From IMG/VR virus record IMGVR_UViG_2526164669_000031: 12,453 nucleotides of DNA; one strand, given 5' to 3'. Of this stretch, positions 2,826 to 12,453 are shown piece by piece (positions within the stretch are counted from its first letter, which is position 1; each line of letters starts with the position of its first letter). The stretch comes from a virus (taxonomy: Duplodnaviria; Heunggongvirae; Uroviricota; Caudoviricetes). The notes under the pieces were generated by a model that saw only the letters and a program-made list of their open reading frames with translations, made no database searches and was not told the DNA's origin. Both the position numbers and the translations under genes were made by a program.

Positions 2826-3059
2826 TGTTATCTCCTTTTTTAATGGAGATTAGCAACTTATCACTATAAGATCAACGAACGTTCAATATGGAAAGGGATA
2901 ATTCTGCTTGGTATTTTTCTTTTAATAATATTGGGGTGCTTTAGTGCGATATTTTGATGATTAGTGTGTGTTCGGCAGTAGAAGCTATCCATAGGCAGTG
3001 ATGTTTCTGCATATAGAATGTTTTAATTATCAAACACATAATTTTCGATTGCGCGCGCA

Positions 3060-3078
3060 GTGCTTTCCCCGCCTCGCC
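3060..3078. other. cos site: P2/P4-type 19-nt cohesive-end sequence
   Basis: GTGCTTTCCCCGCCTCGCC at 3060-3078 is the exact reverse complement of the P2/P4 cohesive end GGCGAGGCGGGGAAAGCAC as I recall it. It is followed by a GC-rich hairpin (CCGCCC...GGGCGG, 3078-3097) and a T-run. Confidence 0.7.
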
Positions 3079-3180
3079 CGCCCGCTTTGCAGGGCGGTTT
3101 TAATGCAGTTGCACAGTCACGCTCAGGCTGCGCCGGGAATGGCGCGGTCTGCAGAGAATGAGGCAGGAAAACGCATGCAA

Positions 3181-3242: not shown

Positions 3243-3815
3243 TTACACAGACTGACGTGATGCCAGTTGCGCACTTTTACGCGAAAAAATCATGTTCTGC
3301 GCAGGAGTGAATTTTTCACGGCTGTCATCCACCGAAGCCGCGTCAGGCCTGAATCCGATGGTCGTTAAAATGTCGCTATCCTGTGCGGAATAATTAATTT
3401 TTTCCCCCTTCGCAAGCCAGGACAGAAGGGCTTCACGCAGGGCATCTGTGGCACGCTGTATGGCACAGTTTCGGGCAATGGCCGTCAGCTCACTGTAGCC
3501 CATCAGCTCCGCTGCCAGTGCCGCCGCCAGTGCTGTGCCGTGCTGCTGCATAAAATCATTCAGCCGGTCGCGGATGCTGATGTGCTGAACGGCTTCATGC
3601 GAACGAATATAACGACCGGCGGCCTGATTCACCTGCCATTTTCTGACTTCGATAATATTGCGTAATTCGTCCAGGCGACTGACGTTTCTGCCTTCTCCTG
3701 ACAGAAGCCGCAGATATTCCTGTTCGGCCGCAGCCAGCTCATTTTTGCGTTGCAGCCATGCTGCTTTGTTATTCTGACAGGTGTCAAAGGCCTGCTGTAA
3801 GGCTGTGCTTTCCAT
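3243..3815 (-). CDS. psu: Psu (polarity suppression / capsid decoration protein), P4-like
   Basis: 190 aa, the length I recall for P4 Psu. Position is immediately downstream of delta in the sid-delta-psu operon. ATG at 3815..3813. Confidence 0.85.
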   Translation of the reverse strand: MESTALQQAFDTCQNNKAAWLQRKNELAAAEQEYLRLLSGEGRNVSRLDELRNIIEVRKWQVNQAAGRYIRSHEAVQHISIRDRLNDFMQQHGTALAAALAAELMGYSELTAIARNCAIQRATDALREALLSWLAKGEKINYSAQDSDILTTIGFRPDAASVDDSREKFTPAQNMIFSRKSAQLASRQSV

Positions 3816-3888
3816 CGTTATCTCTTTCTCATCATGCTGAAGAATAAAAATACGGTGTGTGGCGACGGCCGGTGTTAACCGGCAGCCC

Positions 3889-4389
3889 TCATTCCAGACG
3901 CAGCGAATATGATTGTGTTTTTAACCGTACTGGCGGCAGTTCCTGTTTTTCATGCAGGCGTTCTGCCAGTTCGTCCGGCGTGACCGGGCGGACAATGAAG
4001 CGGGTGATGGTCTGAAGCGTTTTAAACACCAGACCACAGCCCGGATCCGTGCACACATAAAAACGCTCGGTGACTTCCTGAGACAGACGCCGCGATGTTC
4101 TTGACAGTGCAAGGCCTTTACATCTCCGACAACAATATCCGGTAACAAGCATTCTTTTCGGCCGTTTCATACTGCCGGAGGCCGACGTCAGTGAATCGCG
4201 GTATCTCTGTTTGCCTGAAATGTATTCCATTCCTGAATCTTTACTGTCAGAGAAAAAGCTTTCACTCGCTTCAAATGTCGCAGAGCAATAAATATTCCGG
4301 CACTGTGCAATCATTATCTTGGTGCCATCGTCCATGAAATGTGCGCGACGGGTGTGAGCAACATGTCCACACGACGGGCAGTAAATCAT
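3889..4389 (-). CDS. delta: Delta, late-gene transcriptional activator (tandem Ogr-like zinc-finger domains)
   Basis: 166 aa. Two Cys4 zinc-finger modules are visible (CPSCG...CRNIYC and CCRRC...CTDPGCG). The ATG overlaps the sid stop as ATGA at 4386-4389. Confidence 0.9.
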   Translation of the reverse strand: MIYCPSCGHVAHTRRAHFMDDGTKIMIAQCRNIYCSATFEASESFFSDSKDSGMEYISGKQRYRDSLTSASGSMKRPKRMLVTGYCCRRCKGLALSRTSRRLSQEVTERFYVCTDPGCGLVFKTLQTITRFIVRPVTPDELAERLHEKQELPPVRLKTQSYSLRLE

Positions 4390-5120
4390 GACAGCAGTCC
4401 TCTGGCCTTAAGCTCTGCTCCCTGCTGGTCTATTTTGTCCTGCCACACCTTGCGCTGTGCCGGTGTGCCTGCCACCTCATAATCCATGTGCGGGAGTGTT
4501 GCCGCTGACAGTCCGGCCAGCCGGAGAACCGGCTCGCCGGTGAGGCTGATTTGCATCTGTTTAATTTTCTGTTCCAGCGATGATTTCACCTGCTGCATGA
4601 CAGCCTTATCGGGTGCGACGTAGCCCTGATGGCCGGTGGTGTTGGCGAGCGGATTTTCCTGTACCAGGATTCTCAGATGCATTGCCCGGACAAGCGCCTC
4701 ACAGGTTTCATTCAGGGCGTGTTCCAGCTCATGCTCTGCATACAGACTCAGAAGGTGATGATGTGCCTTCCGGTAGGCGGTGGCCGTGCTGTCACACGCC
4801 CCTTTCAGGCGTTCACGTTCGAAATTCAGCACCACGGCCAGATTGTCATATTCCTGTACCAGCTCCCGGCGTGCCACGCGCTCAATGTGGCGCTGTTTCA
4901 GCTCGTCGCTCAGGACACCACCGGCTGCACGAAAGGCCGTGCGCCAGTCGTCAGCGTCATTTCCGTCGGCCTGCGCCAGCGCATTTTTTTCCTGCTCTGC
5001 CCGTTCAATGGCCGTGACGGTCTCATCCATCAGGCGGGCGTTCTCAAGGTGGGCGGCTCTGGCCTTTTCCAGTTGTGCCAGTGCGGGTTGCAGATATTCA
5101 GGGATGGTGTTGTCAGACAT
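4386..5120 (-). CDS. sid: Sid (capsid size determination external scaffold), P4-like
   Basis: The track ORF 4386..5138 begins with a GTG. The in-frame ATG at 5120..5118 (MSDNTIPEYLQ...) gives 244 aa, the recalled P4 Sid length, and has a GAGGAG SD 7 nt upstream. The protein is coiled-coil rich and is the first gene downstream of the late-promoter motifs. Confidence 0.85.
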   Translation of the reverse strand: MSDNTIPEYLQPALAQLEKARAAHLENARLMDETVTAIERAEQEKNALAQADGNDADDWRTAFRAAGGVLSDELKQRHIERVARRELVQEYDNLAVVLNFERERLKGACDSTATAYRKAHHHLLSLYAEHELEHALNETCEALVRAMHLRILVQENPLANTTGHQGYVAPDKAVMQQVKSSLEQKIKQMQISLTGEPVLRLAGLSAATLPHMDYEVAGTPAQRKVWQDKIDQQGAELKARGLLS

Positions 5121-5154
5121 TTTCCGGCTCCTCGTCACTTCAGGTTAAGAAAAT

Positions 5155-5210
5155 TGTGACGTACACCGGACAACAACACGACGCATTGCAGATGTGCCAG
5201 CCCTGACACA
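5155..5210 (-). promoter_or_regulatory. Psid-like late promoter region with two TGT-N12-ACA activator (Delta/Ogr) sites
   Basis: Exact TGT-N12-ACA dyads at 5155-5172 and 5193-5210. Relative to a minus-strand start near 5146 they would be centred at about -18 and -55, the arrangement I recall for P4 late promoters. The sid ATG is at 5120. Confidence 0.6.
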
Positions 5211-5289
5211 GGAGACTCATCCTCAGACCGGCAAGCCAGGAAAAGGTCGCAGGAAAAACCGGCTTACTGTTTGTTTTTTTATGTTTTAC

Positions 5290-5393
5290 TGTTCACCTCT
5301 GTTCACCTTAATAAAAAAGATAAGTAATACAGTAAGTTAAAGGGTGAACAATCGCAGTAATGACTGTTCACCGTCTGTTCACCACTGTTCACC
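5290..5393. repeat. Iteron cluster (six copies of TGTTCACC/GGTGAACA); putative ori for the alpha protein
   Basis: TGTTCACC at 5290, 5300, 5365, 5376 and 5386, and inverted GGTGAACA at 5343. The same octamer recurs in the crr-like repeats downstream of alpha. The AT-rich tract 5400-5500 is adjacent. Confidence 0.7.
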
Positions 5394-5551
5394 CGTTGAT
5401 GGGCTTTTTATGCTGTTTATTACTGTTTATTTTTATTAATTAACTGAAATAAATAAGAAAAAACAATTTGCATTTCACTATAAAAAATTCCAGGTCCTTC
5501 AGAACCCTTTGAGACCCTTCCAGTCCGGATGGATAAAAAACACACAGCCAT

Positions 5552-5569
5552 TGTAAGGTTGCCGGAACA
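5552..5569 (+). promoter_or_regulatory. PLL-like late promoter activator site (TGT-N12-ACA) upstream of vis
   Basis: Exact TGT-N12-ACA at 5552-5569. It would be centred about 55 nt upstream of a plus-strand start near 5615, leaving a 57-nt leader to the vis ATG at 5672. Confidence 0.5.
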
Positions 5570-5671
5570 AATTCCCCCTGTTGCGTCTGCTGAAAATATT
5601 CACAAAATAAAGCGCTACCCGAAGCCGGACGGACTTATCCGGTGCTGTATGGACATTAACGAGGTAGCCCG

Positions 5672-5938
5672 ATGCAAGCTGTTTTTTCTTCCCCGTCTCC
5701 CGCCCCTGTTACGCCACTGATGCCGCTGCCGGACATCACGCAGGAGCGTTTTTTACGTCTGCCGGAAGTGATGCACCTGTGCGGCCTGTCACGCTCGACC
5801 ATCTATGAACTCATCCGTAAGGGGGAATTTCCGCCGCAGGTGAGTCTTGGCGGTAAAAATGTGGCCTGGCTGCACTCTGAAGTCACCGCATGGATGGCCG
5901 GACGCATTGCCGGACGCAAACGGGGGTACGACGCATGA
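5672..5938 (+). CDS. vis: AlpA/Vis-family small DNA-binding protein (excisionase-like late regulator)
   Basis: 88 aa. The C-terminal two-thirds ([47 protein letters not shown]) is a typical AlpA-family helix-turn-helix. GAGG SD 7 nt upstream of the ATG at 5672. An alternative in-frame start at 5720 would give 72 aa. Confidence 0.8.
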
Positions 5939-7388: not shown

Positions 7389-7709
7389 ATGAAAACACCC
7401 TTACCGCCCGTCTTACGCGCTGCCCTTTACCGTCGCGCTGTCGCCTGTGCCTGGCTGACCGTGTGCGAACGTCAGCACCGCTACCCGCATCTCACCCTTG
7501 AGTCACTGGAGGCGGCCATCGCCGCTGAGCTGGAAGGCTTTTATCTGCGCCAGCACGGTGAGGAAAAAGGGCGTCAGATAGCCTGTGCCCTGCTGGAAGA
7601 TTTAATGGAATCCGGCCCCCTGAAGGCCGCGCCGTCGCTGTCCTTTCTCGGGCTGGTTGTGATGGATGAACTCTGTGCCCGTCACATAAAAGCGCCGGTA
7701 CTGCACTGA
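7389..7709 (+). CDS. Hypothetical protein, 106 aa (P4 orf106-like)
   Basis: ATG at 7389 with GGGAGG SD (7375-7380). Ends 15 nt before the alpha gene. Confidence 0.65.
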
Positions 7710-7723
7710 AGGAGAACAACACC

Positions 7724-10057
7724 ATGAAAATGAACGTAACTGCCACCGTCAGCCATGCGCTCGGCCACTGGCCGCGTATTCTCCCGTCGCTGGGGATTCA
7801 GGTGCTGAAGAACCGTCATCAGCCCTGTCCGGTCTGTGGCGGAAGTGACCGCTTCCGTTTTGATGACAGGGAGGGGCGCGGCACCTGGTACTGCAATCAG
7901 TGTGGTGCCGGTGACGGCCTGAAACTGGTTGAAAAGGTGTTTGGTGTTTCCCCGTCCGACGCGGCCGCAAAGGTGGCTGCCGTGACCGGCTGCCTGCCCC
8001 CGGCTGACCCGGCAGTGACGGCCGCCGCCGGTGCTGAAACAGAAGCCGCCCGGAAGAACGCCGCCGCACTGGCACAAACCCTGATGGCGAAAACCCGTCC
8101 CGGAACCGGTAACGCCTACCTGACCCGCAAGGGCTTTCCCGGCCGGGAATGCCGGATGCTGACCGGCACACACAGAGCCGGTGGCGTGAGCTGGCGCGCC
8201 GGTGACCTTGTGGTGCCACTGTATGACGACAGCGGCGAACTGGTTAACCTTCAGTTAATCAGTGCTGACGGCCGTAAGCGCACCCTGAAAGGCGGACAGG
8301 TCAGGGGCACCTGTCACACCCTTGAAGGACAGAATCAGGCCGGAAAACGTCTGTGGATAGCGGAGGGATATGCGACCGCACTTACCGTACATCACCTGAC
8401 CGGGGAAACGGTGATGGTGGCGCTTTCTTCCGTGAACCTCCTTTCTCTGGCCAGCCTTGCCCGGCAGAAGCACCCCGCCTGTCAGATTGTCCTTGCTGCT
8501 GACCGTGACCTCAGCGGTGACGGCCAGAAAAAAGCCGCCGCAGCCGCAGATGCGTGTGAAGGTGTTGTTGCCCTGCCACCGGTCTTCGGTGACTGGAATG
8601 ATGCCTTCACGCAGTACGGCGGGGAGGCCACCCGTAAGGCCATTTATGATGCCATCCGGCCACCGGCTGAAAGCCCGTTCGACACCATGAGCGAAGCGGA
8701 GTTTTCCGCCATGAGTACCAGCGAAAAGGCCATGCGTATCTATGAGCATTACGGCGAGGCGCTCGCGGTCGATGCCAACGGCCAGCTTCTGTCCCGCTAT
8801 GAAAATGGTGTCTGGAAGGTGCTGCCGCCACAGGACTTTGCCCGGGATGTGGCCGGGCTGTTTCAGCGGCTGCGTGCGCCGTTCTCCTCCGGGAAGGTGG
8901 CCTCCGTGGTGGACACCCTGAAGCTGATTATTCCGCAACAGGAAGCCCCCTCCCGCCGCCTGATTGGCTTTCGTAACGGCGTGCTCGACACGCAGAACGG
9001 TACGTTCCACCCGCACAGTCCGTCACACTGGATGCGCACCCTGTGCGATGTGGATTTCACCCCGCCGGTGGAAGGGGAAACGCTGGAAACCCACGCCCCC
9101 GCGTTCTGGCGCTGGCTTGACCGTGCTGCCGGTGGTCGTGCGGAAAAACGCGACGTGATTCTGGCCGCACTGTTTATGGTGCTGGCAAACCGCTACGACT
9201 GGCAGCTCTTTCTGGAGGTGACCGGTCCCGGCGGCAGCGGCAAAAGTATCATGGCCGAAATAGCCACCCTGCTGGCCGGGGAGGATAACGCCACGTCGGC
9301 CACCATCGAGACGCTGGAATCCCCGCGTGAACGTGCCGCGTTAACTGGCTTCTCACTGATACGCCTGCCGGACCAGGAAAAATGGAGCGGCGACGGTGCC
9401 GGACTCAAGGCCATCACCGGCGGCGATGCGGTGTCCGTTGACCCGAAATACCGGGATGCGTACTCCACGCACATCCCGGCGGTGATTCTGGCCGTGAACA
9501 ATAACCCGATGCGCTTCACCGACCGCAGCGGCGGCGTGTCACGCCGGCGGGTGATTATTCACTTCCCGGAACAGATAGCCCCGCAGGAGCGCGACCCGCA
9601 GCTTAAGGACAAAATCACCCGCGAGCTGGCGGTCATCGTGCGTCACCTGATGCAGAAATTCAGCGACCCGATGCTCGCCCGGTCACTGCTTCAGTCCCAG
9701 CAGAACTCAGACGAGGCACGGAACATCAAACGGGATGCCGACCCGACGTTTGATTTTATCGGCTATCTGGAAACCCTGCCGCAGACCAGCGGCATGTATA
9801 TGGGGAACGCCAGTATCATCCCGCGTAATTACCGTAAATACCTCTATCACGCCTATCTGGCCTACATGGAGGCAAACGGCTACCGGAATGTACTCAGTCT
9901 GAAAATGTTCGGGCTGGGGCTGCCGGTGATGCTGAAGGAATACGGACTGAATTACGAGAAGCGCCATACCAAACAGGGGATACAGACCAACCTGACGCTG
10001 AAAGAGGAAAGCTACGGCGACTGGCTGCCAAAATGTGACGACCCTGCAACAACCTGA
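7724..10057 (+). CDS. alpha: Alpha protein: primase-helicase with origin-binding domain
   Basis: 777 aa, the recalled length of P4 alpha. N-terminal zinc-binding primase motif (CPVCGGSDRFRFDDREGRGTWYCNQCGAG), a TOPRIM-like segment (IAEGYATAL...VLAADRD) and a Walker A motif (GPGGSGKS, nt about 9226-9249). SD GAAGGAGA at 7708-7715. Confidence 0.95.
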   Translation: MKMNVTATVSHALGHWPRILPSLGIQVLKNRHQPCPVCGGSDRFRFDDREGRGTWYCNQCGAGDGLKLVEKVFGVSPSDAAAKVAAVTGCLPPADPAVTAAAGAETEAARKNAAALAQTLMAKTRPGTGNAYLTRKGFPGRECRMLTGTHRAGGVSWRAGDLVVPLYDDSGELVNLQLISADGRKRTLKGGQVRGTCHTLEGQNQAGKRLWIAEGYATALTVHHLTGETVMVALSSVNLLSLASLARQKHPACQIVLAADRDLSGDGQKKAAAAADACEGVVALPPVFGDWNDAFTQYGGEATRKAIYDAIRPPAESPFDTMSEAEFSAMSTSEKAMRIYEHYGEALAVDANGQLLSRYENGVWKVLPPQDFARDVAGLFQRLRAPFSSGKVASVVDTLKLIIPQQEAPSRRLIGFRNGVLDTQNGTFHPHSPSHWMRTLCDVDFTPPVEGETLETHAPAFWRWLDRAAGGRAEKRDVILAALFMVLANRYDWQLFLEVTGPGGSGKSIMAEIATLLAGEDNATSATIETLESPRERAALTGFSLIRLPDQEKWSGDGAGLKAITGGDAVSVDPKYRDAYSTHIPAVILAVNNNPMRFTDRSGGVSRRRVIIHFPEQIAPQERDPQLKDKITRELAVIVRHLMQKFSDPMLARSLLQSQQNSDEARNIKRDADPTFDFIGYLETLPQTSGMYMGNASIIPRNYRKYLYHAYLAYMEANGYRNVLSLKMFGLGLPVMLKEYGLNYEKRHTKQGIQTNLTLKEESYGDWLPKCDDPATT

Positions 10058-10064
10058 CCCACCT

Positions 10065-10088
10065 GACCGGCATCTGCCGGTCTTTTTT
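10065..10088 (+). terminator. Rho-independent terminator of the alpha operon
   Basis: GACCGG-CATCTG-CCGGTC hairpin (10065-10082) followed by TTTTTT (10083-10088), 8 nt after the alpha stop. Confidence 0.7.
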
Positions 10089-10104
10089 ATCCCTGAATTC
10101 CCCG

Positions 10105-10406
10105 CAGGTGAACAATCCACTGTTCACCCTTCACCGTATATTCACCCGTTATCACACTGAAATTAAAAGAGAAAAATGAAAGGTGAACAGTGTGAACAAT
10201 CAAATCAAAAAAAACTTTTTTTCTCCCTGTGTGATTTTCAGTGCAGGGGACTAATCGCCGGTATGAGTCACACCGGCAGAATGCCGGAGGTGAAGAATCG
10301 AATGTTCACCCTTCACCCATTATTCACCACCTATCACTCTGAAATAAAAGGAGAAAACAGAAAGGTGAACAGTGTGAACAGTTCTTTCGAAAAAAAATTT
10401 TTTATG
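10105..10406. repeat. crr-like cis replication region: two direct repeats of about 120 bp, each carrying TGTTCACC-type iterons and ending in an A/T tract
   Basis: Repeat 1 is about 10105-10228 and repeat 2 about 10287-10406. They share GGTGAA..ATGTTCACCCTTCACC...GAAAGGTGAACAGTGTGAACA and a terminal A(7-8)T(6-8) tract. Iterons at 10107, 10121, 10182, 10303 and 10364, with TGTGAACA variants at 10191 and 10373. Confidence 0.75.
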
Positions 10407-10424
10407 TGGATAAAAGATGCACTG

Positions 10425-10451
10425 GTTTGGATCCGAGCTACGGATCCAAAC
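10425..10451. repeat. Perfect palindrome GTTTGGATCCG-AGCTA-CGGATCCAAAC (11-bp arms)
   Basis: Arms at 10425-10435 and 10441-10451 are exact reverse complements. No adjacent U-run. Located between crr and the attR-like sequence. Confidence 0.5.
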
Positions 10452-10594
10452 TTACTGATTAAAAATGATTTAACTTTCCGATTTATTGATGGGCTGAAAA
10501 TAGATTGGTCAGAAAAACAGTGGGGGCACAAAAGGGGGCATATTTCATTGTTGTGTTTTATTATTTGTTTTTTTATCATTAACTTATTTTGATG

Positions 10595-10634
10595 TTTGAG
10601 TCCGGCCTTCGCACCTTCGCACCTTCGCACCATC
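10595..10634 (+). other. attR-like remnant of a tRNA 3' end (T-arm and acceptor end) with a triplicated CCTTCGCAC 9-mer
   Basis: TTTGAGTCCGGCCTTCGCACC...CACCA resembles the T-arm and acceptor end of tRNA-Leu (leuX; recalled 3' end ...GTTCGAGTCCGGCCTTCGGCACCA), the known P4 target. CCTTCGCAC occurs three times in tandem (10606-10632). The sequence is in the same orientation as int. Confidence 0.55.
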
Positions 10635-10647
10635 GGAACATCAATAG

Positions 10648-10667
10648 ACGTCAACGGACGTTTTTTT
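10648..10667 (+). terminator. Small hairpin plus T7 run directly after the tRNA-like fragment (possible native tRNA terminator)
   Basis: ACGTC-AACG-GACGT (10648-10661) followed by TTTTTTT. The stem is only 5 bp. Confidence 0.35.
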
Positions 10668-10833
10668 ATGACTGAAATCCGCGCCACACAAGGCTTTTCG
10701 CTATTTTTCGCTCAACCTAAGTCAACCTACATCAACTTACTGATGTGGATACAGCTACAGCTGCGGCTATATCCCGATTCGATAATGTTTGTACCCACAC
10801 AAAACCCTTGAAAGGCTACAAGGCTGAAATTCT

Positions 10834-11019
10834 CTAAACCATAGAGATGATTTTTATGATCCAGTCTTTCTCTTGTTGAGATAGTTCCAGTTTGCTCACT
10901 CGTGTTAAGAAGGTATTGATCACCTGAACATCCGAATTGGTGAGCCTATTTAATAGAGTGGGTGGTATACCTTTACTAACTATTGCTTTGCGGTGACTTT
11001 CGTAGTTTTTATTACTCAT
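10834..11019 (-). CDS. Short ORF (61 aa) in the AT-rich chromosomal flank; possible gene fragment
   Basis: ORF only. It is in a different frame from the adjacent 77-aa ORF, so the pair may be a decayed gene. No recognisable motif. Confidence 0.2.
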   Translation of the reverse strand: MSNKNYESHRKAIVSKGIPPTLLNRLTNSDVQVINTFLTRVSKLELSQQEKDWIIKIISMV

Positions 11020-11084
11020 TGGTGATCCTCAAATATCATTGTATGGCGGCATTGATCGTTTCCAGCAACCTTTACTTACTCACT

Positions 11085-11318
11085 TCAAACTGCATCCTCG
11101 TAGACTGTTCCACTACAATAATCGAAAAGGCGTGGATGTCCATTCAGGTATCCCGCTAATACGTATAGCAATAACAATGGCTTATGCGGCGCGCGCTGTT
11201 CACCCTTGTGCCAGATTTTTATATTGGCAATTGCCTGCTGTAGCGATTTACTGGAAGCCATTGATATCCCTGGCAGTGAAATAATTGCGATCATGCTCGC
11301 AAATTTTCGGCTGTTCAA
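11085..11318 (-). CDS. Short ORF (77 aa) in the chromosomal flank; possible gene fragment or pseudogene
   Basis: ORF only. It sits downstream of and on the same strand as the nanS-like gene, in an AT-rich stretch. Confidence 0.25.
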   Translation of the reverse strand: MNSRKFASMIAIISLPGISMASSKSLQQAIANIKIWHKGEQRAPHKPLLLLYVLAGYLNGHPRLFDYCSGTVYEDAV

Positions 11319-11472
11319 GCCTGCAAGTGAAGATATATTACTTTGATCTCATTTGTTTTTTTGCTGCCTGTGTACCCTAATTGCCATGCGATGCTGCACC
11401 GACGCTAACCACCGTTTACGCCGGAGGAGTTAAAAGCGTTGATGGATGCGAATAAATCAAATTAATGAACGC

Positions 11473-12453
11473 TCACTTTTCGCCCCAAAACTGCAAAATT
11501 GCTTCTACAAACCTGTCAGAAATAATCCCCCGACGGGCTGCCGCGCTGAAATGACTGCTTCGCAGTGCCGTCGTCCAGTTCTCCGGTGACCGGTACGCTG
11601 AACCGTAATATCCCGTGCTTAAATCGTCCGGGTCTTCATCAGGCGCGTTCGTCAGTCCTCTTTCACCTTGTTGCTGGAAGTCGACGAAAATAATATTGGC
11701 TAAAACATTATTTTGATAATTGCCATAAATAACTTCATACGCATGAGGGAAATTTTCTTTCCAGTACCAGGTGGTATCGCCGCAAAACCACGGCGCGTCA
11801 GTAATATTATTAAGCTGAGAATGGTATTGTTTTAGATCCCTACGAAAGGCTTCAATCATATGATTAAAGTGTTGAGGGTGTGACGCGTAGTCACTGGTCA
11901 TTAAGTCAAATTCGCCTTGCATCCAGCATACGCCGAGGAATTTGTTCTGCGGATTTTTTGCCAGTGCGGCTCGCGTTCTGCTGACTAAATCCTGGTACAG
12001 CGGAGTATCCGTTCCCCAACGACAAGCATCATGGCTGGCTCCGTGCCGTTCTGAATATGTCCCTTCGCTGCCCGCGGTAAAAGCCGATCCGCCACGGCAA
12101 CATGGAACGATGAGAACCCCTGCATTATCAGGAATAAAGGGTAGTAATTTCCGTGCAATATGCAGTGCCTGGCCAACGGTGCCGTACTGTGTTTGATGAT
12201 TCGTTGCCAGAGGATGGTGATAACCCTGCATATCCTGAACATCGTGTGGGCAGTGAGTCAGTGGAATAATGTCGTTAAAGTGACATGACGGGCCTCCGGG
12301 ATGCGTATGCGCAAATCTCGCTAATTGTTTAATTCTGGGATGAGGCGCATCTTCCCTGTCCGGTAATGGCAGTCCTTCGCCATACGCCATGGCATTAGAC
12401 TGACCAGCAACGGTAAGAACATAGTAATAATCGGGCGATATTATTGCGTTCAT
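11473..12453 (-). CDS. nanS: Sialate O-acetylesterase (SGNH/SASA-family), NanS-like; the start codon is at the window edge
   Basis: 326 aa. An N-terminal GQSN(A)MAYGEG motif is characteristic of SGNH/SASA esterases. Length and sequence are consistent with E. coli NanS (YjhS) as I recall it. ATG at 12453..12451. Confidence 0.7.
   Translation of the reverse strand: MNAIISPDYYYVLTVAGQSNAMAYGEGLPLPDREDAPHPRIKQLARFAHTHPGGPSCHFNDIIPLTHCPHDVQDMQGYHHPLATNHQTQYGTVGQALHIARKLLPFIPDNAGVLIVPCCRGGSAFTAGSEGTYSERHGASHDACRWGTDTPLYQDLVSRTRAALAKNPQNKFLGVCWMQGEFDLMTSDYASHPQHFNHMIEAFRRDLKQYHSQLNNITDAPWFCGDTTWYWKENFPHAYEVIYGNYQNNVLANIIFVDFQQQGERGLTNAPDEDPDDLSTGYYGSAYRSPENWTTALRSSHFSAAARRGIISDRFVEAILQFWGEK

Follow-up and report, generated by a model that had tools for sequence, protein, structure and literature searches.

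A very probable P4-type bipartite replication origin in a P4-like element at leuX of Escherichia coli OkiPb01675

Results

Location and gene order of the element

Comparison of the nucleotide sequence of the window, by which we mean the whole stretch of 12,453 bp that was analysed, revealed that it is contained, with 100% identity, in E. coli OkiPb01675 (chromosome NZ_AP042478.1, positions 5052297-5064749). It is flanked there by a tRNA-Leu gene (leuX) on one side and by a truncated nanS gene on the other. The genome of bacteriophage P4 (X51522/NC_001609) matched the window with 97% identity over 70% of the window length, in two collinear pieces; this identity of 97% at the DNA level extends over the whole P4 core.

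The order of the genes is that of integrated P4. From left to right the window carries int (1-1260), two cargo ORFs that stand in place of gop/beta/cII of P4 (1315-2825), cos (about 3053-3123), psu, delta and sid on the minus strand (3243-5120), vis on the plus strand (5672-5938), the immunity/early region between vis and cnr, then cnr and alpha, and finally attR (about 10598-10640). The genes int, psu, delta, sid, vis, eps, orf151, cnr and alpha are all full length and their deduced proteins are 98-100% identical to those of P4. The deduced Sid protein (4386-5120, minus strand) is identical to P4 Sid at 241 of 245 residues, and Vis (ORF88), a member of the Phage_AlpA family, is identical to P4 Vis at 88 of 89 residues. 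Judging by its sequence, the window is a P4-like prophage located at leuX of E. coli OkiPb01675.

Octamer iterons between sid and vis

Counting of the octamer TGTTCACC on both strands of the window gave 12 exact copies, against 0.40 expected from dinucleotide-preserving shuffles. The largest count in 200 such shuffles was two and none of the 200 reached 12; the enrichment supposed in an earlier, sequence-only reading of this DNA was thereby borne out. Eleven of the 12 exact copies are located in two short clusters.

The first cluster consists of six exact copies at 5290-5393 in the intergenic region between sid and vis, just as the sequence-only reading had described; five of them are direct and one is inverted. 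Iterons 1 and 2 (5290-5297 and 5300-5307) are on the plus strand, iteron 3 (5343-5350) is on the minus strand, and iterons 4, 5 and 6 (5365-5372, 5376-5383 and 5386-5393) are again on the plus strand. The order is therefore two direct, one inverted and three direct copies, with start-to-start distances of 10, 43, 22, 11 and 10 bp. The twelfth exact copy, at 11197, is situated past attR and so no longer belongs to the prophage; it falls within a fragment of a pseudogene. Its flank bears a weak resemblance to the ori flank (70% over 27 nt), and this copy is compatible with chance.

The three tandem iterons are adjoined by an AT-rich stretch of about 100 bp at 5394-5493; the GC content was 15-23% across 5410-5499 when calculated in 60-nt windows. 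Iteron origins are typically built in this way, and we infer that the stretch serves as the DNA-unwinding region of ori.

Iteron-bearing repeats downstream of alpha

The gene alpha is followed by a hairpin and a T run (10066-10088, plus strand), read from the sequence as the alpha terminator; its counterpart in P4 is the putative rho-independent terminator 'talpha' at 4604-4628. Analysis of the nucleotide sequence beyond this position revealed a pair of 120-nt direct repeats (10102-10221 and 10284-10403) that share 82% identity and lie 182 bp apart from start to start. The start of the first repeat is 4,812 bp from the first iteron between sid and vis, in agreement with the prior reading, which had reported a second iteron-bearing pair of repeats of about 120 bp at a distance of 4.8 kb.

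Each repeat holds five octamers. In the first repeat these are located at 10107 (minus), 10121 (plus), 10139 (plus), 10182 (minus) and 10191 (minus), and in the second at 10289 (minus), 10303 (plus), 10321 (plus), 10364 (minus) and 10373 (minus). Exact copies of TGTTCACC are found at five of these positions (10107, 10121, 10182, 10303 and 10364), and the other five differ from it by one mismatch, namely TATTCACC at 10139 and 10321, TGTTCACA at 10191 and 10373 and TCTTCACC at 10289. All ten octamers, five exact and five with one mismatch, thus fall inside the two 120-nt repeats. An ORF of 138 aa (10176-10592) that runs across this region was rejected as spurious; it has no Pfam match and no annotation in the source genome.

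Correspondence with ori and crr of phage P4

The P4 records X51522 and X05623 label the positions homologous to the first cluster as 'origin of DNA replication' and 'ori type 1 repeat', while the second cluster is labelled 'crr (cis required region for replication)' with two features named 'crr 120bp direct repeat'. Six type 1 repeats are annotated in the P4 ori at 9310-9413, on strands -,-,-,+,-,-; reverse-complemented, this gives the order +,+,-,+,+,+ found in the window. Iterons 1 to 6 of the window correspond to P4 positions 9406-9413, 9396-9403, 9353-9360, 9331-9338, 9320-9327 and 9310-9317, respectively. The two crr repeats of P4 are annotated at 4291-4410 and 4471-4590, with five type 1 repeats in each.

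Alignment of the region from sid through the last iteron revealed a single difference between the window and P4, G/A at 5283, which is outside the iterons, and all six ori iterons have kept the sequence, spacing and orientation of P4. The crr was nearly identical to P4 positions 4291-4590, degenerate iterons such as GGTGAAGA included; the second 120-bp repeat is identical to P4 here, with the same GGTGAAGA variant, and the crr spacer differs from that of P4 by a few substitutions and single-base indels. As in P4, the two 120-bp repeats with five iterons each lie directly past the alpha terminator, and the distance from ori to crr is about 4.7 kb (measured from the last iteron of ori, crr begins after 4,709 bp in the window against 4,720 bp in P4). 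The only strongly diverged patch in the sid-vis region is at about 5430-5560, from the AT-rich region to PLL, where the Cox boxes of P4 are swapped for another repeat phased at 10 bp. The window also differs from phage P4 in being integrated at leuX and in its cargo.

Alpha (7724-10057, plus strand), the primase-helicase-origin-binding initiator, has 777 aa and is identical to P4 alpha at 766 of 776 residues (99%), and between residues 671 and 770 it matches PDB 1KA8, the C-terminal, origin-binding domain of P4 alpha, with 100% identity. Directly upstream of alpha lies cnr (ORF106; 7389-7709, plus strand), whose product is identical to P4 ORF106 at all 107 residues and matches Pfam DUF5375 over its full length; we take Cnr to be the copy-number regulator of the P4 replicon.

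The near-identity to P4, the GenBank labels, the identity of alpha and Cnr and the recurrence in relatives described below indicate that the identification as P4 ori and crr is correct. The two octamer clusters almost certainly represent a P4-type bipartite origin made up of ori, with six iterons and the AT-rich stretch, and crr. The sequence-only reading had taken the octamer to be the alpha-binding iteron of P4 ori and crr, and both clusters match the ori and crr annotated in X51522 and X05623 base for base. Its argument for an intact replicon also holds up as far as can be judged from the letters: alpha is full length, the 1KA8 domain and Cnr are identical, the spacing of ori and crr is P4-like, and the replicon looks intact, with all cis and trans components present and essentially identical to those of P4.

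Conservation of the iterons in relatives and across E. coli

A set of 80 loci carrying relatives of alpha (57-99% identical), one genome per species and from many genera of the Enterobacterales, was compared. De novo clustering of k-mers showed that the top clustered word among these loci is GTGAACA/TGTTCAC, located 1.7-2.6 kb upstream of alpha and again about 55-70 bp past its stop codon. Of the 63 loci evaluable at the ori position, 40 had at least three copies of the TGTTCAC core there; for crr the figure was 36 of 78 loci, and 23 of 63 had such clusters at both places. The iteron pattern + 10 + 44 - 21 + 11 + 10 + was kept in elements of Serratia, Rahnella and Rosenbergiella whose alpha proteins are as little as 57-60% identical. 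Base 8 of the octamer is C or T in the relatives, the number of crr repeats is one or two, and the iteron cluster is accompanied by a stretch with a minimum GC content of 12-25%. The bipartite iteron layout is a constrained trait of the family, and this constraint provides an independent argument for function.

A second word was observed in the same loci. The palindromic heptamer GCATGCA (or ATGCATG) forms clusters of 4-5 copies within 160 bp in many P4-like loci, about 2.4-3.6 kb upstream of alpha (L063, L064, L066, L068, L070, L077-L082 and others in our numbering). These clusters occur from 57% to about 84% alpha identity, are commonest in the divergent loci and are absent from the window.

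Searches of 5,426 complete E. coli genomes with the 151-bp ori core (window 5262-5412) located it at 1,201 places in 1,004 genomes, with up to four per genome. None of the 1,201 places in these genomes was on a plasmid record, all being chromosomal, and none carried a feature annotation on the ori core.

Attachment sites, cargo and the right flank

The core of attR (10598-10640) reads GAGTCCGGCCTTCG, two copies of CACCTTCG and CACCA. The attL site at the 3' end of the tRNA-Leu gene (2318-2337 in locus L004) has a perfect 20-bp core, GAGTCCGGCCTTCGGCACCA. Relative to attL, attR thus shows an 8-bp tandem expansion (identified by TRF as CCTTCGCA x3.8) and the loss of one G. The altered attR might make excision harder, whereas replication itself would be unaffected.

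The two cargo ORFs overlap and are both on the minus strand; they code for 194 aa (1315-1899) and 308 aa (1899-2825) and match PHROGs 15250 and 15676, which are both families of unknown function. No Pfam, PADLOC or NCBIfam match was found for either ORF. The psu-int interval is a variable hotspot known for anti-phage systems, and the pair is a candidate for an uncharacterised two-gene system. The DNA to the right of attR (10640-12453) looks like the remnant of an earlier leuX island; the fragments annotated there as pseudogenes are those of a phosphorothioated-DNA-binding restriction endonuclease and of an HNH endonuclease, together with the truncated nanS.

These features could suggest that the origin is a dead relic, intact in sequence but carried by a decaying island that can no longer excise, and the expanded attR core as compared with attL, the pseudogene fragments beyond it and the chromosomal location of all 1,201 E. 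coli copies of the ori core are what such a relic would be expected to show. We consider this unlikely. Every P4 core gene is full length and codes for a protein 98-100% identical to that of P4, both the ori core and crr have stayed nearly the same as in laboratory P4, and a defect in attR would affect excision and not initiation at ori.

Late promoters on both sides of ori

The iterons occupy the middle of a 550-bp intergenic region between the divergent Psid and PLL promoters. A pattern search was made for TGT-N12-ACA, which we take to be the activator-box consensus of P2 and P4 late promoters. Two boxes on the minus strand, at 5155-5172 and 5193-5210, are identical to P4 and are the probable Delta/Ogr sites of Psid. 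Their centres are 38 bp apart, a spacing that fits the sites at -18 and -55 presumed for Psid if transcription starts near 5146. A third box, on the plus strand upstream of vis (5552-5569), is the probable Delta/Ogr site of PLL; its TGT and ACA ends are those of P4 while the inner bases differ, and it fits a -55 site if PLL starts near 5615. No sigma-70-like promoter was detected in the sid-vis intergenic region. Just upstream of vis, at 5590-5660, lies the sequence AAAATATTCACAAAATA(A/G)AG(C/A)GCTACCCGAAGCCGGACGGAC, which is present at this position in nearly all relatives and varies much less from genus to genus than the DNA around it. The core promoter and the leader of PLL are presumably contained in this sequence.

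The order of elements is thus sid, Psid with its two boxes, a gap of 79 bp, the six iterons, the AT-rich stretch, the phased array described below, one box, PLL and vis. The activator boxes nearest to the iterons are 79 bp (5193-5210) and 158 bp (5552-5569) away, the latter with the AT-rich stretch and the phased array in between, and at these distances the iterons overlap no activator box or core promoter position. The interleaving of ori with the late promoters that the sequence-only reading had proposed is accordingly not what the region contains; the iterons are flanked by Psid and PLL.

This bears on the proposal that the octamers are operators for a transcription factor of Psid and PLL, or that alpha bound there couples replication to late transcription or makes the two compete. 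The cluster does lie between two divergent late operons, in a region that is devoid of a sigma-70-like promoter as expected of activator-dependent promoters. However, the late-activator motif is another sequence, separated from the nearest iteron by the distances given above, TGTTCACC recurs in crr past alpha, where no late promoter exists, the ori and crr iteron clusters are conserved together in relatives, and the sequence gives no sign that replication and late transcription are coupled or compete, nor does it point to a secondary regulatory effect of bound alpha. We therefore regard an operator or coupling role of the octamers as very unlikely.

That the octamers are a chance or low-complexity feature devoid of function has next to no probability: the isolated copy at 11197 outside the element agrees with an expectation of 0.4 per window, but 0 of 200 shuffles reached 12 (maximum 2), and the arrangement is conserved across genera and is the very one of an origin that has been mapped by experiment.

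The phased repeat array between ori and PLL

The diverged patch contains three to four repeats phased at 10 bp, AGGTCCTTCA GAACCCTTTG AGACCCTTCC, at 5494-5530, with the core CCCTT. They occupy the position of the 'ori type 2 repeats' of P4, which are three 10-bp repeats at 9176-9205. The P4 type 2 repeats coincide with P2 Cox boxes, since the consensus TTAAA(G/C)NC(A/C) is matched in phase at 9180, 9190 and 9200; P2 Cox binds upstream of PLL and derepresses P4 (PMC3936717). No match to this box was found at 5494-5530 of the window even with one mismatch allowed, and the window lacks the at least three boxes phased at 10-11 bp that define a P4-type Cox-responsive PLL.

Relatives carry 3-8 phased repeats at the same position. 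The repeat sequences fall into several types unrelated to one another, and the commonest type, TTGCCA/TTGGCA, resembles the annotated Apl operators of phage 186. The arrays compared were those of P4 (X51522, 9176-9208), of locus L085 (23056-23123 and 21075-21121) and of the relatives L012-L084 upstream of vis. Both arrays are common among E. coli genomes: at an identity of at least 95%, the window-type array was found in about 270 and the P4-type array in about 406.

Two candidate binders of the window array were considered. The Cox protein of Wphi fails to activate P4, and its recognition sequence is a 12-nt repeat (PMC5009727), which in the Pe-Pc region of Wphi is CCTAGAARGGAC. A reading of the window array as Wphi-type Cox sites was rejected, as only one box was found, with three mismatches and no commoner than chance; the Wphi repeat and the window boxes have the GAAGGG core alone in common, which is not significant. 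Vis is also an unlikely binder of the phased repeats, being identical to P4 Vis at all but one residue and accompanied by att arms identical to those of P4, while the repeats are wholly different. Since Vis is so nearly that of P4, the array does not track the directionality factor of the satellite itself.

It is conceivable, and we put it forward tentatively from the sequence comparison, that the phased array is a swappable helper-sensing module by which lineages are tuned to the Cox or Apl proteins of different helpers while the origin stays invariant. Because the array adjoins the unwinding region, binding of a helper Cox filament might affect firing of the origin.

Discussion

The ori and crr described here are real but already known, being the characterised P4 origin in an essentially unchanged form. 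The feature is highly non-random and, by every sequence criterion, would be classed as functional. Nothing in the sequence of the window contradicts a bipartite P4-type origin.

The steps by which such an origin would work are taken from knowledge of the P4 literature and transferred to the window by near-identity, the P4 labels being those of GenBank. Alpha would bind the TGTTCACC iterons at ori and crr through its C-terminal winged-helix domain and would join ori with crr by looping of the DNA. Its SF3 helicase would then open the DNA at ori, and its primase domain would prime synthesis, leading to bidirectional theta replication from ori. Replication driven by alpha in this way would be independent of host DnaA, DnaB and DnaG, and Cnr would restrain initiation by modulating the binding of alpha; in P4, losing this control of copy number is deleterious. 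Since the element is an integrated prophage, its replicon should remain silent as long as the prophage is repressed.

The theta origins of iteron plasmids such as pSC101, F, P1 and R6K also contain clusters of direct repeats to which an initiator encoded by the replicon itself binds. [quoted passage not shown] They differ in that their Rep protein is small and brings in DnaA, DnaB and DnaG from the host, while here one polypeptide combines primase, SF3 helicase and winged-helix domains. The second set, crr, is moreover needed for initiation in P4-type elements, while its plasmid counterpart is merely a copy-control (inc) locus. [quoted passage not shown] The PICI ori is, however, a single locus beside rep, while in P4-type elements ori and crr each hold a share of the iterons and are separated by 4.7 kb.

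As the octamers are the well-described two-part origin of P4, essentially unchanged in an E. coli prophage, the finding is an ordinary one. The iterons raise no new question about replication, and novelty is limited to the reading of the neighbouring phased array, if that reading is true. The recognition of a textbook bipartite origin from raw sequence serves as a positive control. It also shows that the island at leuX is a satellite of the P4 type whose replication module is complete, which bears on predicting whether a helper phage could amplify and mobilise the island together with its two-gene cargo.
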